Assembly: GCF_003334305.1 (NCBI RefSeq)
Contig: NZ_QOWS01000011.1
Strand: one strand, 5' to 3'
DNA: 64,000 nt
Origin: Escherichia coli
GTDB lineage: Bacteria; Pseudomonadota; Gammaproteobacteria; Enterobacterales; Enterobacteriaceae
Position numbers and translations under genes: made by a program. The notes beneath the pieces are model-generated. The model searched no databases. It was given only the letters and a program-made list of their open reading frames with translations, and was not told where the DNA came from. Positions 22,635 through 62,536 of this stretch are shown here, one piece after another (the stretch's first letter is position 1; each line of letters begins with the position of its first letter).

Positions 22635-22710
22635 TGGCTCCTCTGACTGGACTCGAACCAGTGACATACGGATTAACAGTCCGCCGTTCTACCGACTGAA
22701 CTACAGAGGA
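22635..22710 (-). tRNA. asnV: tRNA-Asn (GUU)
   Basis: 76-nt reverse complement of TCCTCTGTAGTTCAGTCGGTAGAACGGCGGACTGTTAATCCGTATGTCACTGGTTCGAGTCCAGTCAGAGGAGCCA; anticodon loop CTGTTAA. Confidence 0.95.
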
Positions 22711-25043: not shown

Positions 25044-25119
25044 TGGCTCCTCTGACTGGACTCGAACCAGTGACATACGGATTAACAGTCCGCCGTTCTA
25101 CCGACTGAACTACAGAGGA
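25044..25119 (-). tRNA. asnU: tRNA-Asn (GUU)
   Basis: Sequence identical to the tRNA at 22635-22710. Confidence 0.95.
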
Positions 25120-26867: not shown

Positions 26868-26943
26868 TCCTCTGTAGTTCAGTCGGTAGAACGGCGGACT
26901 GTTAATCCGTATGTCACTGGTTCGAGTCCAGTCAGAGGAGCCA
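26868..26943 (+). tRNA. asnW: tRNA-Asn (GUU)
   Basis: TCCTCTGTAGTTCAGTCGGTAGAACGGCGGACTGTTAATCCGTATGTCACTGGTTCGAGTCCAGTCAGAGGAGCCA, identical to the other two copies. Confidence 0.95.
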
Positions 26944-44900: not shown

Positions 44901-47900
44901 AGCGTAAATGTTGTGGTACGGCTCCAGCGCTCAAGGGTGGCGGCAAACAGCGTGAGCAGCGCGGCAGACGGTGTGACGCCTTGCTGCTGCCAGCGCTGTT
45001 TCACGGCCTGCCATTCTGTCTTGCCGATCGTCGATTTGAAGGTGGTGAAGTGTGGCGTTTCCGGGGGCGTCTCAACCACCGGCAGCTCTGGCGCTAAGGG
45101 CAGTTGCGGCAGTTTTTCCTGCCAGTAATCCCAGGCATCGTGCCATGCCGATGTCTGTCGGCGCGCCTGTTCAGCCATCACATAATCACGGAAGGTAATA
45201 GCGAGCGGCGCCAGCGTTTCACCGCGCCAGACCTGCGCCAGGTCGTCCATCATGACTTTAAAACTCTGCACATCAAACTGCAAAAGGTCGAGGTTCATAT
45301 GCAGACGGTAATGGCAATCGTCGATTTCGCTGACCACCAGCTCAAAAAGAGGCCACTGGTCGGCAGGCAAAACGCGATAGCTCAGTTCATGCCGCCGTTT
45401 TTCCAGCGCGATGCGCTGTTCTTCCGGGGAAAGCGCGCGCAGATCGTCACGCGGGATGTGATACTCCGGCGTTGTCGCCAGGATTCGCTGCTGCCCGTCG
45501 GCATCAACCACCATACGCAACATATCGTGGCGTGCGATGAGCTGGTTCCATGCTTTCTCCAGTATGGCGAGATCGAACTCATCGTGGCGTTTATCCCACT
45601 CAAACAGGACGTGACAGGCGACGCCGCCATAGCCAATGAGGTGGGTTCGCCCCAGCCAGTAGGCGTGCTGAATGGGCGTCAAAGGGAAGGGCGCATAACG
45701 CTCGTCGGCGTCGTGCCGCAACACTTCCGGCTGCGAAGCGGCAGGCGTCGCCTCTGGCTTAGAACAGATAAGCTGCGTGAGTCCATGAGGAGACAGATCC
45801 TGCCACGCCCGTTCCGCATTGATGCGTACGCCCAGGTAGTGCTGAATATCGCTACTGAGTTCAAGGAAGAGCAGCGAGTCCATGCCGAGTTGCAACAGAT
45901 CCTGGTTTGGATGCAGTGACGCCGGATCGCTCAGCCTTAGCTGAACCGCAATCCGCTTTTTCAGCCATGCCATCACCGCTGTTTCATCGCTCAGGCTGCC
46001 GTTAAAGGCGTTGTCATCAGCAGGAGGAATGACCGGCGTTGCGGCTTTTTCTGTGGCGCTGATGTTAAACAGAGCCTGTTGTAACGGGGGCATTTTGTCG
46101 GTAAAAACGCGCATCGCCAGTCGCCACGGGGCGCCGCGCATCACCGCCTGTTCCAGGTGCCAGCAGCCTTCGGCATCGCTTAACGCGCCCATACCTCGGC
46201 TGGCGAGCGTCGCCAGCATTTCCGGCGTGGCCGCCCGACCGCTTTCTCCCCATGCGCCCCAGGCGACAGAGAGCGTTTTCGGCGCATCAAGGGTGGAAAA
46301 CTGCTGGGCCAGCCCGTCCAGGTAGCCGCAGGCCAGCGCATGGGCGCTCTGACCCGGCGCGCCGAGGGTGGCGGCAGCGGAAGAGTAGAGAATAAGATAG
46401 CGTCCGTCGTGGTTGCGCAGGGTTTGCAACAGCTGGCTTGCCGCCTGCGCTTTTACCGCGAAAACGGCAGCCAGCTGGTGGTCATCAAGCTCCTGCAAGG
46501 GCGCGTCAGCCAATACGCCAGCGGCATGAATCGCTCCGGCAATGCCGCCGTTGGCCGCCAGATCGTCAAGAACCGTGGCCAGTTGCCCGGCATCGCCCAC
46601 ATCACAACGGCAGACGCGCGTCTGCCCGCCCTCCACGTCGCGTAGCCATGACTCATCCACGCGCGGCGCCAGCAGGGCGATGCGTCGCGCCCCTTTTTCT
46701 CTGAGCCAGTTCACGGCAAGGCGGCCTAATCCGCCAAACGCTCCGGTCACCAGATGCCAGCGGCTATCGCCGGTAAACACGTTTGCCGGTAATTCAGCGG
46801 CGCATCCCGTATTGGGCGACAGTGAAGGAAGCCAAAGGGTGTCACCCCGTGCGGCGAGCCAGCGCTGTGATAGTGAGACTGCACTCAACCCTTGATGCAG
46901 CGTTTCCCACGGGGTGTTTTCGGCGAGATCGATGGCGGCAAGCAACCGTTCCGGCTGTTCGTTGGCCGCGACGCGAAGCAAGGCCCATAGCGCGTGATGG
47001 GATGCAGAGAGTGCTTCATTTTCCTCGACTCGCCACGCGCGGCGAGTAACCACAATCAATCCGGCTGCGCTGGCGGTGAGCGCTGCTATCACTTTCTCCG
47101 CTAAGGCCAGCGTATCCTCGCTCTCCTCAACAATCATCAGTCGTGAAGAGGCGTGCGGATCGTGAATGATGCCGTATTGCGCCAGCTCGTCGCTGCGCGC
47201 AAGCGTACCGGCGCTGAAGCTAAAGGTAAGCGGATGGTCAATGCTGGCGACGTTGAGGGGCGTCCAGCGCCATTGATAATGCGTTTGCGGCGCAGGAAGA
47301 GGCGCGGCGGGCGATAGCGGCAGCCACTCGCCAGCAGGATGACGGGCTTCAACGCGCATCTGACCGCGGGAAAAGGCTTCGTTTTGCCAGCTTAAGCGAA
47401 CCTTCCCTAGCCACTCCGGGGCGGCGACGGGGGGCGGTTCCACAGGCAGAGCGTCGCCATGACGCTGTGAAAGCAGACGCCAGGCCTCCTGCCAACGGGC
47501 GTTAAACCGTTCGGGCTGACCTGCGCAATCAGACCAGTCGGCGAGATAATCACCGTTATCCGTCAGCGCCTGCCCCAACACGGGTTCTGATGGCGCGGTG
47601 AATGTTACGGCGCTAACCGCCTGACCGGGCAGCGTGGCGAGAATGATATGTTCGCTCATCCCGGCGGTCGGGCTGCCATCCTGCGGTAGCCACGCCACTT
47701 TGCTGAATCCGGCGTGGCGGCACTGTTGTTGCCACTGAGCGGTGGTGAGGAATAACTCACCTTCGCGGGCGTCGAGATCCTGTAGCGGAAGAACCAGCGG
47801 GCCGAAAACGAAGTCAAACAGACGCATTGGCTGGGTGATTTCGCGCATCAGCAGGCGCCCGCCCGGCTTGAGCAGGGGGCGCAGATTATCGAGCGTGCGG

Positions 47901-50900
47901 CCAATATGGCGGGTGGCGTGAATCACGTTCGCTGCCACGATAAGATCGTAAGACTGTGCCTGGAAACCCTGAGACTGCGCCTCTTTTTCGAGATCCAGCT
48001 CGCTATACTTCACAAAATCATAGTCGGCGAATTTCTGCTGGGCGCGACGGGTGAACAGCGCCGAGATATCGGTGAAATGGTACTCCAGTGCCGGAACGCC
48101 GTTGAGTTCCGGCAGCAGCCACGCGGTGGTGCCGCCGGTTCCGCCGCCAACTTCAAGAATACGCAACGGCTGGCGGGGCTGACGCGTCTGGACAATGCCG
48201 CGTAATACCCCGGCGGCGATTTGGTTGAAATAGCGGCCAAAGCTGAATTCCTGATACAGCACTTCCACGCCGTCGGAGGCGCTTTGCGGGAAGATAATCG
48301 CCACCGGTTCTTCCGCGCCGCTCATCATTTCATATAACCGATCGCCGGCACGGGCGATGGTGTCGGGAATAGCCTGAAAACCTTCACAATAACCGGCAAG
48401 TTCCGTCAGCAGTGATTCCCGCTGTTGATGTTCAATGGGGCGGGCGCGGACGTATCGCCCGTCGGTGCAGCGGTAATCGCCGTCGACCACGCAGTTATTC
48501 AGCAGGCGCTGGAGTAGCTGCTGGTAGCGGGGCAGCAGACGTCCACGGCGCATGATGGTCATGGCGTCCACGCCGTTCTCAATGGCATCGCCGGTACAGC
48601 GTTGTACCAGTTGATCGACGTAGATGGCGTGCAGTCGCGTGGCGCACTGTTTAAGCGCTTCCAGGCGAGGGAGATCGAGCGCTGTCGCGGCGCGACTCGC
48701 CACCTCCAGCCCGGCAGACAGCGCTGCGTCGGCAGGCTCGCAGGCCGGGGAGACGCGCTCTTTCCAGTAACGTTCAGTATCAAACGGATAACATGGCGCA
48801 GCGATACGTTGTCCATCGCCCGCCAGCAGGTCGGCCCACGGTAGGGCGACGCCGGCAGCGTAAAGCTGGAGCAGGGCCTGATTGAGGACATCGCTCGCCT
48901 CTTTGTTACGCCGGGCGCTGGCTATCCAGTATGCGTTATCGCGGTATTCGCGCTGCCCGCAAGCAACCAACTGGGCATCGGGCCCCATCTCCAGAAAAAC
49001 GCGGGCGCCGAGCTGATGCGCCACCTGAATACTCTGGATAAAACGCACCGGCTGGCGCATGTGTCGGCGCCAGTAATCCGCCTGGTTGAGCGTTGACTCA
49101 TCAATGACGTCGGCGGTGAGCGTGGAAATAATCGGTATTTGCCCCGGCTCCGCGTGCAGTCCCGCGCAGGCGTCCTGGAACCGATCGAGTATCGGCTCCA
49201 GTAAAGCGGAGTGCGCCGCACCGGTTACGCTCAGGCGACGATAGTTAATGTCATGCTGCGAGAGCGTGGCGCAAAATACCGCGAGACGGGCTTCCGGCCC
49301 GGAAAATACCGTATGTTGCGTACCGTTGTTGGCGGCGAGATCCAGCTCAAACTGGCGAGCCAGCGGCATCAGCGTGTCTTCGTCTGCAAATACCGCCACC
49401 ATCGCGCCGCTTGCGCACTGCTGCATTAGCGCGCCGCGCCGACAAACCAGTGGCATGACCTGTTCAATCGTATAGTGTCCGCAGACAACGGCAGCGGCAA
49501 ATTCACCGACGGAATGCCCAATGGCGAAGTCTGGCTTCAGTCCTTCAGCACGCCAGTGCGCCGCCATCGCGATTTCAAACGCGACAATCGCCGGCTGCGC
49601 CCAGGCCATATTGTCCAGCTGCGCCGAATCGGGGTTAAACATCGCTTCGCGCAGTGACGGCGTGAGCATTTCGCTACAGGCGGAAAAACAGCGATCCAGC
49701 GTGTCGGCAAACGCCGTTGAGTGCTGGTACATCGTTTGGCCCATAGTGCGCCAGTGCGAGCCCTGGCCGGTAAACAGCCACACCTGCTTGCCGCTGGCGC
49801 CGTGGCCGCTGTATACCTGCGCCCCCGATTTCTCACTAGCCCAGGTGCTGAGCGCGTCGGCGGTTTCACGGTTTAATGGCACCGCCAGGCGGAAAGGAAG
49901 ATCGAGACGGCGCGCGTGCAGGGCCGTGAAGGCCAGATCGCTGGCATCCGCATTCTTCCTCAGCGCCCCGGCATAATCCGTCGCCAGCCGCCGCAACGCG
50001 CTGTCGCTGGCGGCGCTGAGCAGCAGCGCAGTACTTTTTCTGCCGCCATCCGTATTGGGGAGGCGCGCGTTGAGCGCATCGGGCAGCGAGGCGACGATCA
50101 TATGGCAGTTGGTGCCGCCAATACCAAAGGAGGATACGCCCGCATAGCGCATTTCATCCTGCCACGCTTGCGCCGACACTGGTACGGTAAAGGGGCTCTC
50201 CTCAAGCTTCAGCGCCGGGTTGGGGGTGTGGAAATTCAATAAGGGTGGAATTTGTCCGCGACTGACGGCCAGAACGGTTTTCAGCAGTCCGGCAATGCCT
50301 GCCGCGGTATCCAGATGCCCCATATTGCTTTTCACGGAACCGAGCGCACAGCGCCTGTCCTGCGGGCGCGGCGCATAGACGTTGCGTAACGCTTCTATTT
50401 CAATCGCATCGCCCAGCGGTGTGCCGGTGCCGTGGGTTTCAATGTAACCTACCTGCCTGTCGTCGATGGCCGCCAGCATTAACGCCTCTTCGATGACCGC
50501 CTGCTGCCCGGCGACGGAAGGGGCGGTATAGCCGACCTTTCTGTTGCCGTCGTTATTGACCGCGCTGGAGAGGATCACCGAGATAATCGGATCGCCTGAC
50601 AGTAGCGCGTCTTTCAGGCGACGCAGAACCACGCAGCCGAGACCATTACCGGCCCAGGTGCCCTCAGCCGAGGCGTCAAAAGGACGACAGTGGCCATCGG
50701 GAGAGAAAATCATTCCGGGCTGGTAGCGATAGCCCGCCTGCTGGGGGAAAGAGAGCGCCACGCCGCCGGCCACCGCCATATCGGATTCGCCTGCGCGCAG
50801 GCTTTCACAGGCCAGATGCACGGCAACCAGCGAGCTGGAGCAGGCGGTCTGTACCGATAACGCCGGGCCGTGCAGGTTGAGTTTGTACGCGGCGCGGGTG

Positions 50901-51433
50901 GCAATATAGTCTTTATCATTGCCCATCAGAGATTGCAGACCTTTTACCTGCGCGACTTCTGTCACGTTCAATGCTTCGCGACCGGGGTAGGTACTCATCC
51001 GGGAAGAGGCGAAAACGCCGGTCTTATGGGGGACGGCGCCGGGGGCATAACCGGCATGTTCCAGCGCATGCCAGACCGCCTGCAAAAACAGGCGCTGCTG
51101 CGGGTCCATCGACTCCGCTTCCTGTCGCGAATAGCCAAACAGGGTGGCGTCGAAGCAGTCGGCGTTGTCTAACACCGTACCGATATTGACATAATGAGGA
51201 TCGTCAATGATGGCGGCATCCAGACCGACGGCCAGAAGCTCTTCGCGCGTAAAGCGTCGGCTGCATTCACGACCTTCCAGCAGATTTTGCCAGAACGTTT
51301 CGCCATCCGGCGATTCAGGAAAATGGCAGGCGTAGCCGATAACCGCGACAGGTTCGCAGTCCGGGTAGTGTTGAGCGATCGATGCATCAATGGAATCTGC
51401 TGTCGGCGCAGAAGAGAAGCGCAAGTTATCCAT
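41942..51433 (-). CDS. irp1: Irp1 / HMWP1, yersiniabactin PKS-NRPS
   Basis: 3163 aa; motifs seen: KS TACSSSL, AT GHSVGE, methyltransferase LEVGGGTG, KR GAFGGLG, carrier GMDSL and FFELGGDSL, thioesterase GWSYG. Confidence 0.95.
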   Translation of the reverse strand: MDNLRFSSAPTADSIDASIAQHYPDCEPVAVIGYACHFPESPDGETFWQNLLEGRECSRRFTREELLAVGLDAAIIDDPHYVNIGTVLDNADCFDATLFGYSRQEAESMDPQQRLFLQAVWHALEHAGYAPGAVPHKTGVFASSRMSTYPGREALNVTEVAQVKGLQSLMGNDKDYIATRAAYKLNLHGPALSVQTACSSSLVAVHLACESLRAGESDMAVAGGVALSFPQQAGYRYQPGMIFSPDGHCRPFDASAEGTWAGNGLGCVVLRRLKDALLSGDPIISVILSSAVNNDGNRKVGYTAPSVAGQQAVIEEALMLAAIDDRQVGYIETHGTGTPLGDAIEIEALRNVYAPRPQDRRCALGSVKSNMGHLDTAAGIAGLLKTVLAVSRGQIPPLLNFHTPNPALKLEESPFTVPVSAQAWQDEMRYAGVSSFGIGGTNCHMIVASLPDALNARLPNTDGGRKSTALLLSAASDSALRRLATDYAGALRKNADASDLAFTALHARRLDLPFRLAVPLNRETADALSTWASEKSGAQVYSGHGASGKQVWLFTGQGSHWRTMGQTMYQHSTAFADTLDRCFSACSEMLTPSLREAMFNPDSAQLDNMAWAQPAIVAFEIAMAAHWRAEGLKPDFAIGHSVGEFAAAVVCGHYTIEQVMPLVCRRGALMQQCASGAMVAVFADEDTLMPLARQFELDLAANNGTQHTVFSGPEARLAVFCATLSQHDINYRRLSVTGAAHSALLEPILDRFQDACAGLHAEPGQIPIISTLTADVIDESTLNQADYWRRHMRQPVRFIQSIQVAHQLGARVFLEMGPDAQLVACGQREYRDNAYWIASARRNKEASDVLNQALLQLYAAGVALPWADLLAGDGQRIAAPCYPFDTERYWKERVSPACEPADAALSAGLEVASRAATALDLPRLEALKQCATRLHAIYVDQLVQRCTGDAIENGVDAMTIMRRGRLLPRYQQLLQRLLNNCVVDGDYRCTDGRYVRARPIEHQQRESLLTELAGYCEGFQAIPDTIARAGDRLYEMMSGAEEPVAIIFPQSASDGVEVLYQEFSFGRYFNQIAAGVLRGIVQTRQPRQPLRILEVGGGTGGTTAWLLPELNGVPALEYHFTDISALFTRRAQQKFADYDFVKYSELDLEKEAQSQGFQAQSYDLIVAANVIHATRHIGRTLDNLRPLLKPGGRLLMREITQPMRLFDFVFGPLVLPLQDLDAREGELFLTTAQWQQQCRHAGFSKVAWLPQDGSPTAGMSEHIILATLPGQAVSAVTFTAPSEPVLGQALTDNGDYLADWSDCAGQPERFNARWQEAWRLLSQRHGDALPVEPPPVAAPEWLGKVRLSWQNEAFSRGQMRVEARHPAGEWLPLSPAAPLPAPQTHYQWRWTPLNVASIDHPLTFSFSAGTLARSDELAQYGIIHDPHASSRLMIVEESEDTLALAEKVIAALTASAAGLIVVTRRAWRVEENEALSASHHALWALLRVAANEQPERLLAAIDLAENTPWETLHQGLSAVSLSQRWLAARGDTLWLPSLSPNTGCAAELPANVFTGDSRWHLVTGAFGGLGRLAVNWLREKGARRIALLAPRVDESWLRDVEGGQTRVCRCDVGDAGQLATVLDDLAANGGIAGAIHAAGVLADAPLQELDDHQLAAVFAVKAQAASQLLQTLRNHDGRYLILYSSAAATLGAPGQSAHALACGYLDGLAQQFSTLDAPKTLSVAWGAWGESGRAATPEMLATLASRGMGALSDAEGCWHLEQAVMRGAPWRLAMRVFTDKMPPLQQALFNISATEKAATPVIPPADDNAFNGSLSDETAVMAWLKKRIAVQLRLSDPASLHPNQDLLQLGMDSLLFLELSSDIQHYLGVRINAERAWQDLSPHGLTQLICSKPEATPAASQPEVLRHDADERYAPFPLTPIQHAYWLGRTHLIGYGGVACHVLFEWDKRHDEFDLAILEKAWNQLIARHDMLRMVVDADGQQRILATTPEYHIPRDDLRALSPEEQRIALEKRRHELSYRVLPADQWPLFELVVSEIDDCHYRLHMNLDLLQFDVQSFKVMMDDLAQVWRGETLAPLAITFRDYVMAEQARRQTSAWHDAWDYWQEKLPQLPLAPELPVVETPPETPHFTTFKSTIGKTEWQAVKQRWQQQGVTPSAALLTLFAATLERWSRTTTFTLNLTFFNRQPIHPQINQLIGDFTSVTLVDFNFSAPVTLQEQMQQTQQRLWQNMAHSEMNGVEVIRELGRLRGSQRQPLMPVVFTSMLGMTLEGMTIDQAMSHLFGEPCYVFTQTPQVWLDHQVMESDGELMFSWYCMDNVLEPGAAEAMFNDYCAILQAVIAAPESLKTLASGIAGHIPRRRWPLNAQADYDLRDIEQATLEYPGIRQARAEITEQGALTLDIVMADDPSPSAAMPDEHELTQLALPLPEQAQLDELEATWRWLEARALQGIAATLNRHGLFTTPEIAHRFSAVVQALSAQASHQRLLRQWLQCLTEREWLIREGESWRCRIPLSEIPEPQEACPQSQWSQALAQYLETCIARHDALFSGQCSPLELLFNEQHRVTDALYRDNPASACLNRYTAQIAALCSAERILEVGAGTAATTAPVLKATRNTRQSYHFTDVSAQFLNDARARFHDESQVSYALFDINQPLDFTAHPEAGYDLIVAVNVLHDASHVVQTLRRLKLLLKAGGRLLIVEATERNSVFQLASVGFIEGLSGYRDFRRRDEKPMLTRSAWQEVLVQAGFANELAWPAQESSPLRQHLLVARSPGVNRPDKKAVSRYLQQRFGTGLPILQIRQREALFTPLHAPSDAPTEPAKPTPVAGGNSALEKQVAELWQSLLSRPVARHHDFFELGGDSLMATRMVAQLNRRGIARANLQDLFNHSTLSDFCAHLQAATSGEDNPIPLCQGDGEETLFVFHASDGDISAWLPLANALNRRVFGLQAKSPQRFATLDQMIDEYVGCIRRQQPHGPYVLAGWSYGAFLAAGAAQRLYAKGKQVRMVLIDPVCRQDFCCENRAALLRLLAEGQTPLALPEHFDQQTPDSQLADFISLAKTVGMVSQNLTLQAAETWLDNIAHLLRLLTEHTPGESVPVPCLMVYAAGRPARWTPAETEWQGWINNADDAVIEASHWQIMMEAPHVQACAQHITRWLCATSTQPENTL

Positions 51434-51520
51434 AATCGGTCCCGTTTCCTAAGATTCACAAAGTCAATGGAACGCCATGCGTTCGCGATGGCGTTCCGGG
51501 GAAAATCAGTTTGCTTCGCG

Positions 51521-54500
51521 CTATATCCGCCGCTGACGACGGCGAACAGGGCGAGGTCGTTTTGTTTTCTCCACCGTGGCGACGCCGGCCAGATAATCGG
51601 CCAGGGCAGCAGGAGAAGGGTGGGTGAAGAGGTCAAGCAACGTCAGGGTGGAAAATTCGTGACGTTGTAACAAAACGTGCAGTTGCACCAGATTCAGCGA
51701 CGTTGCGCCCGCCTCAAAGAAGTTTTCTGCGGGCGTGACAGACTCGCCAACCACCTCGCGGAAGGCGTCGCAAATCAGGCTGACGGTGCTCTCGTCCGCC
51801 GCAATGTGTGGCTGAGAGTGCTCAGGGCATACGCGCGGTGAGCGCTCTGCGCATTGCCCTGCGTGTTTAACGGGAGGCACCAGCGCGGCGAGCGGCAGTT
51901 GCCAGCCGCTTTCATCCTCGGCCATTCGGTTTAGCAATGCGCAATACTGTTCAAACTGGCGCTCCACCTGCCCGGCAGGAAACAGCGCGGCGACAAAATC
52001 CCAGTTAAAGCGCAGTTCGCCTTCGGATTCATAAATCTGGTGATCGAGCCAGACCTGCGGCGTCTGGGAGATGCCCCAGACCGGTTTGAGCAGATTACGC
52101 CGGGCGAGGAAGTTATCCTGCTCAAAGCCCAGTGCGCTGGTAAAGACGACGGGCATCGGAACGGCAGGCACGTTTTGCCGTTGCGCCAGTTGACGCATCA
52201 CGCGGATGGCTGACACATCGCGGTGGTTGAGGTTCTGGCTCAGCCGCTGCTGTAGTGACTGCGCGCTGTGCAGCCAGCTTTCGCCGGGATGCCAGCTCAG
52301 CAGCATCAGCGAGGTGAAATCGCCCAGAATCTGGTTGATTTGCGGGTGCAGCGGTCGCCTGTCGAAAAGCGTAAGGTTAAGCGTGAACTCAGGCTGTGCA
52401 CTCCATGCAGAGAGAACCGTTGACCACACCGACAACAGTACGGCCGACGGGGTGAGATGGGCGTCAGCCGCCCGTTTTTTCAGCCGATGCCAGCGCGTGC
52501 TGTCCAGTGCGCCGTTCAGGCGGGCGAAGCGCGGTGTTTCAACCTCCTGAGGCAAGCAGCGCAGCGGCAACGCAGGCGCCGGAGGAATATCATCAAGCTG
52601 CGCCTGCCACCATGCCAGAGAATCTGGATTGGGCGACTGTAGCGAGGGTTGTTGCAGATAATCCCTGAAGGTGACGGGCAGCGGCGGAAGCAGCTGTTGC
52701 GGGTAGCGGTAGCCGTGCTCCAGCTCCGCCAGCAGGATCTGCATGCTCAGACCGTCAAGCAACAGGTTATCCAGACACAGCCACAGGCGGGCAGGCATCC
52801 CGTCCACGTATCCGACCTGGAGATCGAATACCGGCCACACTTCGGGGTTGAGTACCTGATGCGCCAGTTTTTCGCGCACCCGCAACGCCTCTTCAGGCGT
52901 ATGGAGGGTGTGTGCGGGTATCACCCAAGGGGGCGTCTGTTCGAGCACCTGTTGCTGTCCATCACGCACGATGGCGCGCAGCATATCGTGGCGGGCGATT
53001 AATCGGTTCCAGACCGTCTCCAGCCGGGTGAGGTCCAGATCGGCAATTTCAAATTCAACAAAGAAATGTGAGCCGACGCCGCCCAGGGCAAAGCCCGGCT
53101 GACGCCCCACCAGGTAAGCCTGCTGCACGTCGGTAAGCGCAAAGGGCTGGTAGCGATCTTCAGGGGAGTGGACGAATGGTTGTTCGACCGGGACGTCGGT
53201 TTTCCGCAGCGTGGCGGCAAAATCCGCCAGCCGGGGATGATTAAACAGGTCGCTTAATTGCGCTTCATAACCTGCCTGATGAAGTTGCCCGGTCAGACGG
53301 GTCGCCAGCAGGCTATCGCCGCCTTGCTGGAAGAAGTCGGTTTCTCTGGTGACATTGCCAGTTGATAAGAGTTGCTGCCAGAGGGCGGCAACCTGTTTTT
53401 CAATGTCGCCCTGGGGTAAATCCGCTTCGGCCGGGTTTTCCGCTTCAGGGGTATGACGACGCTTCAGCGCCTGGTAGTCAATTTTCCCGTTAGCCGTCAG
53501 CGGTAAGGCGTCGAGGAATACGATCCGTTGCGGCACCATCCACCCCGGCAGACGCCCGGCGAGGGCGGCCTGAAGTTGACGGGGATCGCGGCGCACCTGC
53601 CTGTCAGGACATTGTACGAGGAAGCGTTGTAACCCCGCGACCTCATCGCCATGCTGACAGTTGAAGCCGGCCGCGCTAAATAATGCCGCCCAGTCGGCGC
53701 TGTTATGCAGCAAGGCCTCCGGCTGCCCATTGGTTAACAGGAGCGTGCTGAGTAGGGCGGACGGCGTTAACTGGCGAAACTCCATCACGTAGAGCAGCGC
53801 GCCGGGAACGGCAAGCTGTTGTAATGTCGCAAGGAGCCCGGGATCTTCCGGCAGCAGACGATGCAGGGCGTTATTAAGCCAGATAATGTCCGCCGAGTGA
53901 GCGTGCGTCGCCAGCGTGTCTGCATTCCAGAGGGACAGACGGGCGCCAGGCCAGGGGGCGAGCCTCTGCCGGGCGCTCAGCAGCATCTCCTGGCTCTGCT
54001 CAAGCCCGACATACTCAATCTGTCCGGCGTTGAGCTGTGCTAACAGCGATTCTGCGGCGCGGCCAGTGCGGGTTCCCACCTCAAGCAGGCGTACCGGGCG
54101 CTGTAAGCGCTGTGCAAGCTGTTGGCAAATTGTCGCCAGTTCCTGAATATACGGGGCGCTGGCCGGATGGTTAAAGGCCAGGCTTTCCGGCGACCACTGC
54201 GCGTCGTTCAGTAACGACAGTTCGTTACGGGCACCGCGAAGAATTTGCGATAACGTTAAATCATGTCCGCTGAAGTGCGGGTGCTCATCCTCGCGTTCTT
54301 CACCAGCGCAGACCTGATAACCTTCAGCAGCGGGCTTCAGTCGCCGTTGTGTCACCAGAAATGCTAACCAGCGTTCCACCACGGCCTGCCAGCGCGGCTG
54401 GATAGCGAGTGAGTTCATCAGGGGGAGAGGATCGGCGCCAGCGGTGTGACCCGGCTTCAGTTTTAGCAGGCGATGCTGAAGGAAATCGGCTACCTGTTCT

Positions 54501-57500: not shown

Positions 57501-57628
57501 CTCTCTTCATGTAACTGCTGCGGCGTTAAATTCAGTTCCTGTATGAGCCGCTCGCGTAATTGTTGGTAATCAGCCGCGTGGCGGTTGTCCGGTACCAGCG
57601 AATCCTGAGATGGTGCGCCAGAAATCAT
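51521..57628 (-). CDS. irp2: Irp2 / HMWP2, yersiniabactin NRPS
   Basis: 2035 aa from ATG 57628 ([24 protein letters not shown]); adenylation core [12 protein letters not shown], cyclisation-domain [11 protein letters not shown], carrier motif FFQQGGDSL. Confidence 0.95.
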
Positions 57629-57667
57629 TCTTCCTCCTGATGGCACGTCTTACCGAAAAGCATTACT

Positions 57668-57739
57668 AATATGAGAATAATAATTATTAACAATTGAATG
57701 CTACCCGAAACGGGTTTATTTATGCCCGTTTCGGGTTGG
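57668..57739 (-). promoter_or_regulatory. irp2 promoter region: Fur-box-like site and YbtA-box palindrome
   Basis: aatatgagaataataattattaacaattg (57668-57696) and ctacccgaaacgggtttatttatgcccgtttcgggt (57701-57738), the same palindrome as at fyuA. Confidence 0.6.
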
Positions 57740-57755
57740 TAACAGGCGGAAAGAA

Positions 57756-57786
57756 CAGAGGCCCGGATGAGGTATCCGGGCCTCTG
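57756..57786 (-). terminator. hairpin terminator after ybtA
   Basis: cagaggcccggat gaggt atccgggcctctg, 33 bp 3' of the ybtA stop. Confidence 0.6.
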
Positions 57787-57818
57787 TCAGGGAGGAGTTT
57801 AGGGGGGCGCGACCCCGG

Positions 57819-58778
57819 TTACATCCCGCGTTTAAAGGTCGAAGGAGTTACGCCAAACTGTTTCTGGAAGGCGGCAGAGAAATGGCTGGCGTTGGCATAG
57901 CCCAGATCGGCCGCCACCGTCATGACGGAGGTATTGCCGTTGGCCAGGCGTCTTCTGGCTTCCTGCATTCGTTCAGCCTGAAACAGGCCATAGACGCTGT
58001 TGTTGAACAGAACGCGGAAGCCTCGCTTAATTTTGAGAACGCTCAGACCGGACTCTCTGGCCAGCTCCGCGACGCCCGGCGCTTGCGTCAGATCAGCCAG
58101 CAGCAGATCCTTCGCCCGCAGCAGTTTCTGGCGTTCCATCGGGTTGAAGTGGCAGGAGAGGCAACTGGCGTCTTCGCGATGTTCATCCAGCACCAGGCTG
58201 AGCATGACCAGACTTTGCCCCTGCAACCATAGCGTCGACGGCTTTTGTTCATGACTGAAGCCGCCGTGCATGCGCATCAGCGCGTGACGCAAGGCCTGAG
58301 CCGTTAAGTGGGTTTCAGCATTACAACGCTGCTGCTGGCAACAGCAGTGGGAGTCGATCTTATTCTTAATGACCGCGCTAATATCCGGCACCCACAGCGC
58401 GAGGGTTTCAGGGCTGAAGGAGAGGGTAATGCTCTCGAATCGGCCACAATAGGAGGCGCTGCCGCGACAGTCTGGCGTATGGGTAATGTAATGGCGATTG
58501 CGCGCAAGCTCCCAGTCGGTGTGGCGCCGGAGTCCCTGAATCGCAAAGCGCGATGTGCCTTCCAGGATGCACGAGAAGTTAATCCTGCCCAGATCGTCGT
58601 GTAGCTGCAACGTCTCTGGCCGCGCAAAATGGCCCCTCCAGAGCAAAATATCCATACCTTCCTGCAACGAACAGCGCAGCAGTTCACACTGAGCAGGAAT
58701 ATTGCCATCGTTTGCAGGTTTCCCGACCACCAACTGGTGAATAGAGATTTCAGATTGCGTTTGCGGTGACTCCGTCAT
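57819..58778 (-). CDS. ybtA: YbtA, AraC-family activator of the yersiniabactin regulon
   Basis: 319 aa; C-terminal AraC HTH (...GYANASHFSAAFQKQFGVTPSTFKRG). Confidence 0.9.
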   Translation of the reverse strand: MTESPQTQSEISIHQLVVGKPANDGNIPAQCELLRCSLQEGMDILLWRGHFARPETLQLHDDLGRINFSCILEGTSRFAIQGLRRHTDWELARNRHYITHTPDCRGSASYCGRFESITLSFSPETLALWVPDISAVIKNKIDSHCCCQQQRCNAETHLTAQALRHALMRMHGGFSHEQKPSTLWLQGQSLVMLSLVLDEHREDASCLSCHFNPMERQKLLRAKDLLLADLTQAPGVAELARESGLSVLKIKRGFRVLFNNSVYGLFQAERMQEARRRLANGNTSVMTVAADLGYANASHFSAAFQKQFGVTPSTFKRGM

Positions 58779-58848
58779 GACCTGGTTATCTCCCTGTGGC
58801 TTAGACCAATGCGGGTATAAATAGAACCGAATGGGGTAGATGAGTTAT

Positions 58849-58875
58849 TGATAATGGTTATTATTCACATTAATT
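58849..58875. promoter_or_regulatory. Fur-box-like site in divergent ybtA / ybtP intergenic region
   Basis: ttgataatggttattattcacattaat resembles the GATAATGATAATCATTATC Fur consensus. Confidence 0.5.
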
Positions 58876-58944
58876 CTCAGAACGCCACCCTGAATTGTCG
58901 TTTTTGGCGTCCGTAAAAATTCATCAGGAAATTCAGTTACTCCC

Positions 58945-60747
58945 ATGTCATCTCAATCATCCAATACTGAATCGCTGTCCCGATTTCCTCTCTGGCAGGT
59001 GATTACACCGGTTCGCAGGAAGGTTATTTTAGCTATGGCGCTGGCGGGGCTGGCGGCATTAACCAGCCTGGGGGCGCTCCTTTTTCTGGCGTGGAGCCTG
59101 CGTGACATTCGCGCGACGCCTGACGCTATTCCGGCCTGGCCGCTGGGCGGCGTGATCGGCTGCGTGGTCTTAACTTTTGTTCTGCGCTTACAGGCGTTCA
59201 ACACCTCTCATTACGCGGCTTTTCATCTGGAGAACATTCTGCGCAGCAGGTTAGCCCGTAAAGCATTGCAGCTTCCGCCTGGCGTGTTACAGCAAATGGG
59301 CAGCGGGTCAGTGGCGAAAGTGATGCTGGATGACGTGAAGTCGTTACATATTTTTGTGGCCGACAGCACGCCGCTCTATGCCCGCGCGATCATCATGCCG
59401 CTGGCGACAATCGTTATCTTGTTCTGGCTGGACTGGCGGCTGGCAATCGCGACGCTGGGGGTACTGGCGTTTGGATCGGTTGTTCTCGTGCTCGCCCGCC
59501 AGCGTTCGGAAAATATGGCTCAGCGTTATCATAAGGCGCGCGAGCAGGTTAGCGCGGCGGTTATTGAGTTCGTGCAGGCCATGCCCGTGGTGAGAACGTT
59601 TGATAGCGGCAGCACCAGTTTTTTGCGCTATCAACGCGCCCTTGAAGAGTGGGTCGATGTGCTCAAAACCTGGTATCGCAAAGCCGGTTTTTCAGCGCGT
59701 TTTTCCTTCTCGATTCTGAATCCTCTCCCGACCCTGTTTGTCCTGATCTGGTCGGGATACGGCCTGTTGCACTATGGCAGTTTCGATTTTATCGCGTGGG
59801 TGGCCGTTTTACTGCTGGGCAGCGGAATGGCCGAAGCCGTAATGCCAATGATGATGCTCAATAACCTGGTCGCGCAAACGCGTTTAAGCATTCAGCGTAT
59901 TTATCAGGTTCTCGCGATGCCGGAGTTATCGCTGCCGCAGTCTGACCAGCAGCCGCAAGAGGCGAGCATTACCTTTGAGCAGGTGAGCTTTCATTATCCG
60001 CAAGCGCGTACTGGCGCCGCGTTGCAGGAGGTGAGCTTTCATGTGCCTGCCGGGCAAATTGTGGCGCTGGTCGGGCCAAGCGGCGCCGGAAAAAGCACCG
60101 TGGCGCGCTTGCTGCTGCGTTACGCCGACCCGGACAAAGGCCATATCCGTATTGGCGGCGTGGATCTGCGTGATATGCAGACGGACACCCTGATGAAGCA
60201 ACTCTCGTTTGTGTTTCAGGACAACTTCCTTTTTGCCGACACGATAGCCAATAACATTCGTCTGGGCGCGCCGGATACGCCGCTGGAGGCGGTTATAGCG
60301 GCGGCCAGAGTGGCGCAGGCCCATGATTTTATTAGCGCTCTGCCAGAAGGTTACAACACTCGAGTCGGGGAACGTGGGGTATTTCTCTCCGGCGGCCAGC
60401 GGCAGCGCATTACTATCGCCCGGGCGCTTTTGCAGGATCGCCCCATCCTGGTGCTCGATGAGGCGACGGCGTTTGCTGACCCGGAAAACGAAGCGGCGCT
60501 TATCAAGGCGCTCGCGGCGGCCATGCGTGGCCGGACGGTCATCATGGTCGCGCATCGTCTCTCAATGGTGACTCAGGCCGATGTGATATTGCTGTTTTCC
60601 GACGGACAACTCAGGGAAATGGGGAACCATACGCAACTGTTGGCGCAGGGCGGCCTGTATCAACGGCTCTGGCAACACTATCAGCAGGCGCAGCATTGGG
60701 TGCCGGGTGGAACACAGGAAGAGGTGGTGGAAAATGAAAGACAATAA
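58945..60747 (+). CDS. ybtP: YbtP, ABC transporter (fused permease/ATPase) for ferric yersiniabactin
   Basis: 600 aa; Walker A GPSGAGKST, ABC signature LSGGQRQR. Confidence 0.9.
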   Translation: MSSQSSNTESLSRFPLWQVITPVRRKVILAMALAGLAALTSLGALLFLAWSLRDIRATPDAIPAWPLGGVIGCVVLTFVLRLQAFNTSHYAAFHLENILRSRLARKALQLPPGVLQQMGSGSVAKVMLDDVKSLHIFVADSTPLYARAIIMPLATIVILFWLDWRLAIATLGVLAFGSVVLVLARQRSENMAQRYHKAREQVSAAVIEFVQAMPVVRTFDSGSTSFLRYQRALEEWVDVLKTWYRKAGFSARFSFSILNPLPTLFVLIWSGYGLLHYGSFDFIAWVAVLLLGSGMAEAVMPMMMLNNLVAQTRLSIQRIYQVLAMPELSLPQSDQQPQEASITFEQVSFHYPQARTGAALQEVSFHVPAGQIVALVGPSGAGKSTVARLLLRYADPDKGHIRIGGVDLRDMQTDTLMKQLSFVFQDNFLFADTIANNIRLGAPDTPLEAVIAAARVAQAHDFISALPEGYNTRVGERGVFLSGGQRQRITIARALLQDRPILVLDEATAFADPENEAALIKALAAAMRGRTVIMVAHRLSMVTQADVILLFSDGQLREMGNHTQLLAQGGLYQRLWQHYQQAQHWVPGGTQEEVVENERQ

Positions 60748-62536
60748 TCCTGCGGATAACCTGGCCTGGCGCGTCATCTGGCGCCAGCTTATCTCCAGCG
60801 TTGGCAGTCAGGCCAGGATGCTGCGACGCAGTATGCTGGCGCTGTTGCTGGCGGCATTCATGCAGGGGATCGCCTTTGCCTGTCTTTATCCGATCATTGA
60901 TGCGCTGTTACGGGGAGACGCGCCGCAACTTCTTAACTGGGCTATGGCCTTCAGCGTCGCCGCAATTGTGACGCTGGTGCTACGCTGGTATGGCCTGGGC
61001 TTTGAATACCGTGGTCATCTGGCGCAGGCTACCCATGAGTTGCGCCTGCGACTTGGCGAGCAGTTACGCCGCGTGCCGCTGGAGAAGCTCCAGCGCGGCA
61101 GGGCGGGTGAAATGAACGCCTTGCTGCTGGGCAGCGTGGATGAAAACCTCAATTATGTTATTGCGATAGCCAATATTTTGCTGCTCACCATTGTCACGCC
61201 GCTGACGGCGTCGCTGGCGACATTGTGGATAGACTGGCGGCTGGGGCTGGTGATGTTGCTGATCTTCCCTCTGCTGGTGCCGTTTTATTACTGGCGCCGC
61301 CCGGCGATGCGGCGACAAATGCAGACGCTGGGGGAAGCGCACCAGCGTCTGAGCGGCGATATCGTTGAATTTGCTCAGGGGATGATGGTATTGCGCACCT
61401 GCGGCAGCGATGCCGATAAAAGCCGGGCGCTGCTGGCGCATTTCAATGCGCTGGAAAACTTACAGACCCGCACTCACCGTCAGGGCGCTGGCGCAACGAT
61501 GCTGATCGCCAGCGTCGTGGAGTTGGGCCTACAGGTGGTGGTGTTATCCGGGATCGTCTGGGTAGTGACGGGCACTCTGAACCTCGCCTTTTTGATTGCC
61601 GCCGTCGCGATGATTATGCGCTTCGCAGAACCGATGGCGATGTTTATCAGCTACACCTCGGTTGTGGAACTGATCGCCAGCGCCCTGCAACGGATTGAGC
61701 AGTTTATGGCGATAGCACCGCTTCCCGTCGCAGAGCAAAGCGAGATGCCGGAACGTTACGATATCCGCTTTGACAACGTCAGCTATCGCTACGAAGAAGG
61801 TGACGGCCACGCGCTTAATCATGTTTCTTTGACGTTCCCGGCAGCCAGTATGAGCGCGCTGGTGGGTGCCTCCGGCGCAGGCAAAACTACGGTCACCAAA
61901 CTGTTAATGCGCTATGCCGATCCGCAGCAAGGGCAGATTTCTATTGGCGGCGTCGATATTCGCCGCCTGACGCCGGAACAGCTCAATAGCCTGATTTCTG
62001 TTGTTTTCCAGGATGTCTGGCTGTTTGATGACACGCTGCTGGCGAATATCCGTATCGCGCGCCCACAGGCGACGCGGCAGGAGGTAGAAGAGGCCGCCCG
62101 CGCGGCGCAGTGCCTTGAGTTTATTTCCCGTCTTCCGCAAGGCTGGCTGACGCCAATGGGAGAGATGGGCGGCCAGCTATCGGGCGGCGAGCGCCAGCGG
62201 ATTTCCATTGCCAGAGCGTTATTGAAAAACGCGCCGGTCGTCATTCTCGATGAACCGACTGCCGCGCTGGATATTGAAAGCGAGCTGGCGGTGCAAAAAG
62301 CGATCGATAACCTGGTTCACAACCGGACGGTGATTATCATCGCTCACCGTTTATCCACCATCGCCGGGGCCGGAAACATTCTGGTGATGGAAGAGGGACA
62401 GGTGGTTGAGCAGGGTACTCATGCGCAATTGCTCTCACATCATGGACGTTATCAGGCGCTGTGGCAGGCGCAAATGGCCGCGCGCGTGTGGCGCGACGAC
62501 GGGGGTTCCGCGTCTGGAGAGTGGGTGCATGAGTGA
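60734..62536 (+). CDS. ybtQ: YbtQ, ABC transporter (fused permease/ATPase)
   Basis: 600 aa from ATG 60734 (MKDNNPADNLAWR), overlapping ybtP by 14 nt; Walker A GASGAGKTT, signature LSGGERQR. Confidence 0.9.
   Translation: MKDNNPADNLAWRVIWRQLISSVGSQARMLRRSMLALLLAAFMQGIAFACLYPIIDALLRGDAPQLLNWAMAFSVAAIVTLVLRWYGLGFEYRGHLAQATHELRLRLGEQLRRVPLEKLQRGRAGEMNALLLGSVDENLNYVIAIANILLLTIVTPLTASLATLWIDWRLGLVMLLIFPLLVPFYYWRRPAMRRQMQTLGEAHQRLSGDIVEFAQGMMVLRTCGSDADKSRALLAHFNALENLQTRTHRQGAGATMLIASVVELGLQVVVLSGIVWVVTGTLNLAFLIAAVAMIMRFAEPMAMFISYTSVVELIASALQRIEQFMAIAPLPVAEQSEMPERYDIRFDNVSYRYEEGDGHALNHVSLTFPAASMSALVGASGAGKTTVTKLLMRYADPQQGQISIGGVDIRRLTPEQLNSLISVVFQDVWLFDDTLLANIRIARPQATRQEVEEAARAAQCLEFISRLPQGWLTPMGEMGGQLSGGERQRISIARALLKNAPVVILDEPTAALDIESELAVQKAIDNLVHNRTVIIIAHRLSTIAGAGNILVMEEGQVVEQGTHAQLLSHHGRYQALWQAQMAARVWRDDGGSASGEWVHE

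Follow-up and report, generated by a model that had tools for sequence, protein, structure and literature searches.

Overlapping gene junctions and translation starts along ybtP-ybtQ-ybtX in the Yersinia high-pathogenicity island of Escherichia coli

In the yersiniabactin locus of Escherichia coli, ybtQ and ybtX appear to begin inside the gene that precedes each of them, which raises the question of where translation of the two genes starts and whether it depends on ribosomes arriving from upstream. The locus was analysed in a 64,000-nucleotide stretch of E. coli DNA (the window), which carries the Yersinia high-pathogenicity island, and the ybt stretches compared are 100% identical to those of sequenced strains. 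The gene content is that expected for the island, with ybtA divergent from ybtP-ybtQ-ybtX-ybtS and with irp2-irp1-ybtUTE and fyuA alongside. Three co-directional genes are central to the question:

58945 to 60747, plus strand: ybtP coding sequence in its 600-aa form, an ABC half-transporter (ORF list; identity to PDB 6p6i_A).
60734 to 62536, plus strand: ybtQ coding sequence, 600 aa, the ABC half-transporter partner of YbtP (PGAP; PDB 6p6i_B; MALDI intact mass).
62529 to 63809, plus strand: ybtX coding sequence, 426 aa, an MFS transporter (PGAP; homologue lengths; orthologue starts; extent of the TIGR02718 match).

This is the ybtPQXS operon known from the high-pathogenicity island of Y. pestis, Y. 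enterocolitica, E. coli, Klebsiella and Salmonella pESI, with no substantive difference. The literature describes four operons, one of which is ybtPQXS as a single transcription unit (PMC8805033; PMC11225919). E. coli FDAARGOS_497 shares the gene order (ybtA, then ybtP-ybtQ-ybtX-ybtS), the annotated ybtQ and ybtX starts and 100% DNA identity with the window over 5.2 kb. Of 5426 complete E. coli genomes, 2268 carry the same operon, and those whose records were inspected annotate ybtQ and ybtX at identical starts. No promoter-like sites were found on the plus strand inside the operon, the count of terminator-like sites within it was not above expectation, and an Rfam scan run over 57600-64000 with a permissive threshold yielded a single match, to isrG, whose 15 bits (gathering score 100) are at chance level. 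The three genes would thus be read from one mRNA regulated by iron and YbtA. In PDB 6p6i, chains A and B are identical to the 600-aa products of ybtP and ybtQ, respectively. The two proteins share 35% identity and pair to form the yersiniabactin ABC importer, a heterodimer that has been described (PMC7002159).

Both junctions can be read directly from the DNA, together with the Shine-Dalgarno (SD) sequences that precede the two start codons:

60734 to 60747, plus strand: ybtP/ybtQ overlap running from ATG to TAA, 14 nt, ATGAAAGACAATAA (sequence; PGAP annotation).
60721 to 60726, plus strand: Shine-Dalgarno GAGGTG of ybtQ, 7 nt before the ATG, within codons of the YbtP C-terminal tail (EEVV).
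62529 to 62536, plus strand: ybtQ/ybtX overlap, 8 nt, ATGAGTGA (sequence; PGAP annotation).
62516 to 62519, plus strand: Shine-Dalgarno GGAG of ybtX, 9 nt before the ATG, within codons of the YbtQ C-terminal tail.

The initial annotation had placed the ybtQ ATG 14 nt inside ybtP and the ybtX ATG 8 nt inside ybtQ, and both placements are exact to the base: the in-frame ybtQ ATG (60734-60736) precedes the ybtP stop TAA (60745-60747), the ybtX ATG (62529-62531) precedes the ybtQ stop TGA (62534-62536), and RefSeq/PGAP uses the same two starts in an identical E. coli genome. Each junction joins two genuine genes, so that the overlaps are no chance pattern of the usual kind. Both overlaps are shared, at 14 and 8 nt, with K. 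oxytoca and with a Salmonella plasmid locus. The ybtQ SD has an anti-SD duplex energy of -12.6 kcal/mol, where fewer than 6% of operon positions reach -10, and SD-like purine runs lie at the matching place in all orthologous P/Q junctions; the ybtX SD reaches -10.3 kcal/mol and its K. oxytoca counterpart reads GAGGAG. A five-codon mini-ORF (62536-62553) also starts at this second junction, within a TGATG motif that includes the ybtQ stop.

The frames of ybtQ and ybtX are, however, open upstream of the annotated ATGs, and translation from upstream codons would give considerably longer overlaps:

60707 to 60709, plus strand: GTG in frame with ybtQ, where the ORF track begins this gene (609 aa), rejected (not conserved; substitution pattern of the extension; TGA allele).
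62406 to 62528, plus strand: 41-codon upstream extension of ybtX, from TTG 62406 (467 aa) and also containing ATG 62421 (462 aa), rejected (substitutions; absent from orthologues).

Such long forms exist in a few legacy GenBank records (ABE07651.1, 609 aa; ABE07650.1, 467 aa; ABJ01357.1, 462 aa) and TTG 62406 is preceded by an SD-like sequence of -10.7 kcal/mol, but the long forms are found on 8-23 contigs and the short forms on at least 1000. For ybtQ, residues 1-600 of PDB 6p6i_B correspond to residues 10-609 of the long ORF, and the MALDI intact mass published for untagged YbtQ co-purified with tagged YbtP, obtained by over-expression in BL21 from a construct whose retention of the native ybtP-ybtQ junction is not explicitly stated, is 66,394.9 Da (PMC7002159). 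A 600-aa YbtQ has a calculated mass of 66,393.4 Da and a 609-aa YbtQ one of 67,732 Da; the published value therefore fits the 600-aa form and lies 1.3 kDa below the longer one, which argues against a start at GTG 60707. This mass is the sole protein-level datum found in the literature on the ybt genes, where no specific ribosome profiling, start-site mapping or translational coupling data were found.

Comparative evidence points in the same direction. K. oxytoca has GGA at the position of GTG 60707, so that the codon is not conserved, and the ybtQ extension differs from its K. oxytoca counterpart by 3 synonymous and 20 non-synonymous changes. A single nucleotide polymorphism (G60727A) turns TGG into TGA between GTG 60707 and ATG 60734, and the exact 81-nt allele with this stop occurs in 603 of the 2268 island-positive E. 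coli genomes, while the G allele over the 81-nt junction, which the window carries, occurs in 1643. Where the frame of an orthologue closes 3-6 codons before the ybtQ start, the protein begins at the aligned methionine. A start of ybtQ at ATG 60734, with the predicted N-terminus MKDNNPADNLAWR, is thus strongly supported by comparative starts, substitutions, a natural stop allele and the published intact mass, as is the earlier view that the longer ybtQ ORF is an upstream in-frame artefact; for this gene the upstream-start reading is already largely refuted.

For ybtX, most full-length homologues have about 400-440 aa, and at six loci with stop codons 0-12 codons upstream the orthologues begin at the position aligned with the ybtX ATG. 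The open frame upstream of that ATG (62388-62528, which includes the extension) shows 1 synonymous and 20 non-synonymous changes against K. oxytoca when read in the ybtX frame, versus 11 and 10 in the ybtQ frame; the extensions of both genes evolve almost purely non-synonymously, and the 41-codon extension of ybtX has no counterpart in orthologues. NCBIfam holds no dedicated HMM for YbtP, YbtQ or YbtX, so family models bear on the starts only through how far the alignments to the MsbA and RhtX/FptX profiles extend. These begin, as do the orthologues, at the short positions, and the match to TIGR02718 (RhtX/FptX siderophore MFS transporters) begins at residue 17 of the 426-aa YbtX. The alignment covers nearly the whole profile (positions 1-387 of 390; 125.4 bits, E 2.6e-36), and YbtX homologues, like the RhtX/FptX family, lie in AraC-regulated loci adjoining TonB-dependent receptors. 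However, the family's curated cut-off is 356.15 bits, which this score misses by a wide margin, and by that model YbtX is a relative and not a member. The predicted start of ybtX at ATG 62529, giving an N-terminus MSDVQSNVK from which, as in the other Met-Ser protein of the three, the initiator methionine may be removed, is well supported by comparative starts, substitutions and the extent of the family profile, and so is the earlier description of the longer ybtX ORF as an in-frame artefact. Taken over both genes, upstream true starts are very improbable.

The opposite displacement, in which ybtX would start past the ybtQ stop and the Q/X overlap would disappear, has in its favour in-frame GTG and TTG codons soon after that stop. 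The energies of the SD sequences before them are weak (-5.9 kcal/mol for GTG 62550, -3.7 for TTG 62565), K. oxytoca and Salmonella keep both ATG 62529 and the MSDV N-terminus, and in S. symbiotica, where the frame closes directly before the start, the protein opens with a similar MSEAH. We consider this displacement less likely still, to the point of being negligible. The overlaps between ybtP, ybtQ and ybtX are real and the annotated starts of ybtQ and ybtX are right. The annotation of ybtP is a different matter: RefSeq/PGAP uses a shorter, 570-aa form from ATG 59035, and codons 1-30 of the 600-aa form (predicted N-terminus MSSQSSNTESLSR) show 10 synonymous and 1 non-synonymous changes against K. 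oxytoca. The RefSeq model probably omits 30 real N-terminal codons.

Overlaps are not confined to the plus strand of the island:

41942 to 51433, minus strand: irp1.
40845 to 41945, minus strand: ybtU.
40045 to 40848, minus strand: ybtT.
41942 to 41945, minus strand: irp1/ybtU overlap ATGA, 4 nt (sequence).
40845 to 40848, minus strand: ybtU/ybtT overlap GTGA, 4 nt, preceded by AAGGAGG (sequence).

The additional overlaps reported at ybtU/irp1 and ybtT/ybtU are accordingly present, at 4 nt each, and ybtT is separated from ybtE by a gap of 3 nt.

What these junctions do to translation is the second part of the question, and a comparison with known termination-reinitiation pairs (Huber et al. 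2019, PMC6728339; Huber et al. 2023, PMC10666635; review PMC12548453) suggests translational coupling. Like those pairs, the ybt genes are co-directional on one mRNA, their start codons lie within a few bases of the upstream stop with the SD inside the upstream gene, and ybtP/ybtQ encodes a heteromeric complex, a class enriched for such pairs. Among co-directional E. coli pairs a spacing of -8 nt is the third most enriched after -4 and -1 (PMC12548453, PMC10666635), so the Q/X junction has one of the three enriched motifs, while longer overlaps such as -14 are rarer and share the reading phase of -8 (PMC12548453, PMC10666635). A range of -8 to +10 nt predicts termination-reinitiation (Huber et al. 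2023, PMC10666635) and includes ybtQ/ybtX (-8), irp1/ybtU (-4), ybtU/ybtT (-4) and ybtT/ybtE (+3). The P/Q overlap differs in that -14 lies just outside this predictive range; moreover, both ybt junctions are in the phase in which -8 is the shortest possible overlap.

Under the proposed mechanism, each downstream start would use its own SD, written into a poorly conserved, Glu/Gly-rich tail of the upstream protein. A ribosome ending ybtP or ybtQ would terminate a few bases beyond the next AUG, and the ribosome or its 30S subunit could be recaptured by the adjacent SD and re-initiate, beside some fresh initiation. YbtQ output would thereby be tied to YbtP output, which would suit an obligate 1:1 heterodimer, and some ribosomes would be passed on to ybtX.

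The same features can also be read as the signature of two genes translated essentially independently, with de novo initiation at strong SD sequences and with overlaps that are neutral products of genome compaction and of stop-codon drift in unconstrained tails. Both ybtQ and ybtX have a strong SD, and de novo initiation could be sufficient at -12.6 and -10.3 kcal/mol. Stretches of 61 nt and 120 nt folded around both junctions had energies like those of shuffles (z +0.8 to -1.4), a result that favours neither reading, and the predicted structure exceeded shuffled controls in stability at neither junction (z -0.7 to -1.4). In the predicted fold the ybtQ SD and AUG lie unpaired in an open loop, which gives no sign of a masked ribosome-binding site needing an upstream ribosome and, with the strong SD sequences, makes independent initiation possible. 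The C-terminal tails of the upstream proteins are poorly conserved against K. oxytoca (10 synonymous to 13 non-synonymous and 11 to 10 changes), and overlap length and phase vary by lineage (-14/-8, -4/-4 or -4/+2 at the two junctions), which requires indels in these tails.

However, the ybtP/ybtQ-type pair overlaps in six of six loci examined over three bacterial orders, though the tail sequences are free to vary. The P/Q spacing is -14 in E. coli, K. oxytoca and the Salmonella plasmid and -4 in Enterobacter sp., a metagenome bin, Comamonas and Acinetobacter; relatives with about 56-58% YbtX identity have the -4 phase at P/Q. The diverged orthologues were reached via YbtX homologues, and a search of a plasmid collection for diverged copies gave only copies of at least 96% identity plus unrelated ABC genes. 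In addition, overlapping or closely spaced E. coli pairs are 4.5-fold enriched for heteromeric complexes, and reporter work found native overlapping E. coli pairs to be tightly coupled (PMC10666635). With these observations against it, independent translation with neutral overlaps is possible but rather unlikely. The Q/X junction is more variable (-8, -4 or +2) and ybtX adjoins other genes in other taxa, so that coupling of ybtX to ybtQ specifically is not a conserved requirement.

The explanation that we favour, and regard as likely, is a ybtPQXS operon in which the observed ybtQ and ybtX starts lie inside the preceding genes and in which, as we infer, ribosomes ending one gene would supply the next. 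The coupling suggested in the initial annotation for ybtP-ybtQ-ybtX is a reasonable inference that fits the P/Q overlap in every locus examined. A further proposal is that the -14/-8 spacings of the island lineage, which use the less common phase and not -4, form together with the mini-ORF a built-in attenuator, where inefficient backward re-initiation would set a ratio of YbtP at or above YbtQ and YbtQ above YbtX. We regard this as improbable, although, if true, the overlap lengths would have been tuned to set expression and would not be accidental.

In operons encoding complex subunits short overlaps are commonplace, and those of ybtP-ybtQ-ybtX are ordinary operon architecture, already annotated and no discovery: the RefSeq E. 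coli records that were inspected place the starts at the same ATGs, and the 600-aa YbtQ is the form used in the YbtPQ structures (PDB 6p6i and related). For cloning ybtQ or ybtX, ATG 60734 and ATG 62529 should be used, and constructs meant to keep the native ribosome-binding site should retain the last ~20 nt of the upstream gene. A ybtP model that is too short would, in turn, affect constructs, mass calculations and allele typing.

The region is the Yersinia high-pathogenicity island, whose operon and annotation are already known, and the overlap of neighbouring genes is itself a textbook phenomenon. Positions 58700-63900 match the E. coli FDAARGOS_497 chromosome at 100% identity; there RefSeq gives the order ybtA (minus strand), ybtP, ybtQ, ybtX and ybtS (plus strand), with an integrase and tRNA-Asn next. 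Of 5426 complete E. coli genomes, 2268 have this stretch. On the minus strand, 34000-52000 contains fyuA, ybtE, ybtT, ybtU and irp1 as well as the end of irp2; a gene for an inverse autotransporter and a frameshifted pseudogene with Ig-like domains adjoin fyuA at ~34000-35700. The region matches no Rfam family. The island typically integrates at tRNA-Asn genes, three of which lie upstream of it:

22635-22710, minus strand, tRNA-Asn (GTT)
25044-25119, minus strand, tRNA-Asn (GTT)
26868-26943, plus strand, tRNA-Asn (GTT)

Read directly from the sequence, ybtQ starts inside ybtP (ATG 60734 against TAA 60745-60747, 14 nt in common) and ybtX starts inside ybtQ (ATG 62529 against TGA 62534-62536, 8 nt in common, ATGAGTGA), while on the minus strand irp1/ybtU overlap by ATGA and ybtU/ybtT by GTGA, and ybtT and ybtE are separated by 3 nt. 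The factual statements of the initial annotation were thus all correct, and its interval, 60734-62536, is exactly the ybtQ coding sequence. Apart from the slightly long 14-nt overlap, the junctions are ordinary. A mechanical ORF list instead begins the ybtQ frame at GTG 60707 (609 aa) and the ybtX frame at TTG 62406 (467 aa), longer versions that had been suspected of being artefacts.

For ybtQ this suspicion is borne out by four independent, concordant lines of evidence (orthologues, substitution pattern, a natural allele and protein mass), which place the real start at ATG 60734. Orthologues were reached through YbtX homologues and fetched with their flanks; in four of them (Enterobacter sp. 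BIGb0383, a metagenome bin, Comamonas composti and an Acinetobacter contig) the ybtQ frame has a stop 3-6 codons upstream, and the first Met aligns to the E. coli Met at 60734. When the open stretch before 60734 is translated in the ybtQ frame and compared with the island of K. oxytoca (85-87% DNA identity), 3 codon changes are synonymous and 20 are non-synonymous, and K. oxytoca has GGA in place of GTG 60707. A second common junction allele, G60727A, turns TGG into TGA in the extension frame three codons upstream of the ATG, so that strains carrying it are unable to make the 609-aa protein; the exact allele (81-nt probe) occurs in 603 of the 2268 island-positive complete genomes. Finally, YbtPQ was purified by Wang et al. 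with a His tag only on YbtP, and the MALDI mass of YbtQ, 66,394.9 Da, was obtained from over-expression in BL21 in a paper that makes no explicit statement of the native junction in the construct (PMC7002159). The calculated masses are 66,393.4 Da for 600 aa and 67,732 Da for 609 aa, and the calculation is consistent because YbtP, assuming a Gly-Ser remnant, gives the same 1.4-Da offset.

The 609-aa form appears in a legacy GenBank record, ABE07651.1 (UTI89), and was rejected; the mass in the same strain later fitted the 600-aa form. By exact-sequence look-up, 609-aa YbtQ is filed in a 90%-identity cluster of YbtP members, YbtP and YbtQ being 35% identical. This placement probably reflects a quirk of the clustering or the tool, brought about by the junction sequence that the two share, or else a problem of labelling.

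For ybtX, the comparative evidence is clear for ATG 62529 and indicates that the longer version is likewise an artefact. Full-length YbtX homologues are mostly ~400-440 aa long, and the RhtX/FptX profile match begins at residue 17 of the 426-aa protein. The ybtX-type frame is closed 0-12 codons upstream in six loci (Serratia symbiotica, Brenneria, a Logan contig, Comamonas, Paracidovorax and Acinetobacter), and in each the gene begins no more than a few residues from the position that aligns with ATG 62529, the S. symbiotica N-terminus being MSEAH against MSDVQ. Across 62388-62528, comparison with K. oxytoca gives 1 synonymous and 20 non-synonymous changes in the ybtX frame, and in the ybtQ frame 11 synonymous changes, with third positions accounting for 15 of 26 differences. 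ATG 62421 is conserved because it overlaps the ybtQ residues Thr-His-Ala (ACT CAT GCG). Since TTG 62406 also has a Shine-Dalgarno (SD)-like sequence (-10.7 kcal/mol), sequence signals alone are insufficient to choose the ybtX start. Long YbtX forms were found only in early GenBank records, ABE07650.1 (467 aa, UTI89) and ABJ01357.1 (462 aa, APEC O1), and were rejected; long YbtQ/YbtX forms occur on 8-23 contigs and short forms on at least 1000. Three database proteins reach well upstream of the YbtX start, namely P0021 (718 aa; ABC_tran and MFS matches), P0007 (564 aa; MFS only) and P0052 (485 aa; ABC_tran). P0021 and P0052 presumably represent ybtQ-ybtX fusions spanning the 8-nt overlap, produced by a frameshift or a mis-call.

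Two annotations exist for the ybtP start: ATG 59035 (570 aa) in RefSeq/PGAP, and ATG 58945 (600 aa) in PDB 6p6i_A, in the AMRFinder reference and in many database records. Compared with K. oxytoca, codons 1-30 of 600-aa ybtP have 10 synonymous changes and 1 non-synonymous one, and 9 of the 13 differences fall on third positions; no third-position or synonymous bias is seen in the 51 nt preceding 58945. Orthologues share homology over this N-terminal segment (LWQVTGPVRLQI against LWQVITPVRRKVI), and both the MsbA profile and the YbtQ paralogue align upstream of YbtP Met31. Together, the substitution pattern and these orthologue, profile and paralogue alignments favour 600-aa YbtP, and the 570-aa RefSeq model is probably 30 codons short. 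It was presumably chosen because both ATGs are without a well-placed SD.

The ybtQ and ybtX starts are each preceded by a strong SD site, in an operon where <6% of positions reach -10 kcal/mol:

60721-60726, ybtQ SD GAGGTG, 7 nt upstream of the ATG, -12.6 kcal/mol against the 16S 3' end
62516-62519, ybtX SD GGAG, 9 nt upstream of the ATG, -10.3 kcal/mol

Both sites lie within the last 5-10 codons of the preceding gene (YbtP tail …EEVVENERQ, YbtQ tail …SGEWVHE), so that the tail codons of the upstream gene also serve as a ribosome-binding site for the gene that follows. These tails run beyond the paralogue-alignable region and vary freely among species. In K. oxytoca the tails are different, the SDs are kept or better (GAGGAGG; GAGGAG), and the ATG and stop positions are unchanged. 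G60727A, immediately 3' of the GAGGTG core, also replaces Val by Met in the tail of YbtP.

Spacing at the ybtP-ybtQ (P/Q) and ybtQ-ybtX (Q/X) junctions and their counterparts, in nt (negative, overlap; positive, gap)
E. coli, K. oxytoca, Salmonella plasmid: P/Q -14; Q/X -8
Enterobacter sp. BIGb0383: P/Q -4; Q/X -4
Metagenome bin (L007): P/Q -4; Q/X +2
Comamonas: P/Q -4; receptor/X -11
Acinetobacter: P/Q -4; X without upstream operon neighbour, its stop overlapping the following P gene (X/P -7)
Hyphomicrobium: P/Q not seen; ABC/MFS -4
Ottowia: P/Q not seen; receptor/MFS -11, twice

Wherever both ABC half-transporter genes are seen (six loci), they overlap, and the neighbour and spacing of ybtX vary among loci. 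The -14 and -8 spacings belong to the phase whose shortest possible overlap is -8, whereas the -4 spacing seen in more distant relatives belongs to the other one; frame-changing indels in the tails thus separate the lineages. The 11-nt overlap of a TonB-dependent receptor gene with a following YbtX-family MFS gene, as called in Comamonas composti (L009, 5001-5011), recurs at the same length in Ottowia testudinis (L017, 6001-6011 and 10347-10357). Serratia symbiotica AP019531.1 (L004, 2849-6254) has an intact ybtX homologue (75% identity) and an AraC gene reduced to a 49-aa fragment, with no ybtP or ybtQ called in the 2 kb upstream of the homologue, which looks like decay of a symbiont's island that has spared the MFS gene.

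A five-codon mini-ORF (62536-62553, ATG TTC AGT CGA ATG TGA, MFSRM) starts in a TGATG motif with a one-base overlap with the ybtQ stop. A spacing of -1 is the classic one for re-initiation. The motif is conserved in K. oxytoca and the Salmonella plasmid and absent from the more distant Enterobacter and metagenome loci. Terminating ribosomes could be drawn to the mini-ORF in competition with the ybtX ATG, or the mini-ORF could result by chance from the Ser-Asp-Val codons.

The genes ybtP-ybtQ-ybtX-ybtS are reported as a single transcription unit under Fur and YbtA control (PMC8805033, PMC11225919), and our sequence scan found no plus-strand promoter-like site and no terminator-like excess in the operon interior. 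In published reporter experiments with native gene pairs of E. coli, genes that overlap or are separated by very short gaps were strongly coupled by termination-reinitiation, and genes for heteromeric complexes were 4.5-fold enriched among pairs spaced -8 to +10 nt (PMC10666635); -8 is the third most enriched spacing in E. coli (PMC12548453), and YbtPQ is an obligate heterodimer (PMC7002159). The P/Q spacing of -14, however, falls outside the range tested in the reporter study (PMC10666635). Alternatively, each gene may be initiated independently: both SD sequences are strong enough, the local RNA fold is predicted to be no more stable than shuffled sequence, and the ybtQ start is unpaired in the predicted structure. 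On balance, the translational coupling suggested by the initial annotation is fairly likely for ybtP-ybtQ and somewhat less so for ybtQ-ybtX. With such coupling, ribosomes terminating on ybtP or ybtQ would be recaptured at the adjacent SD and AUG, and this recapture would coordinate synthesis of the partner proteins.
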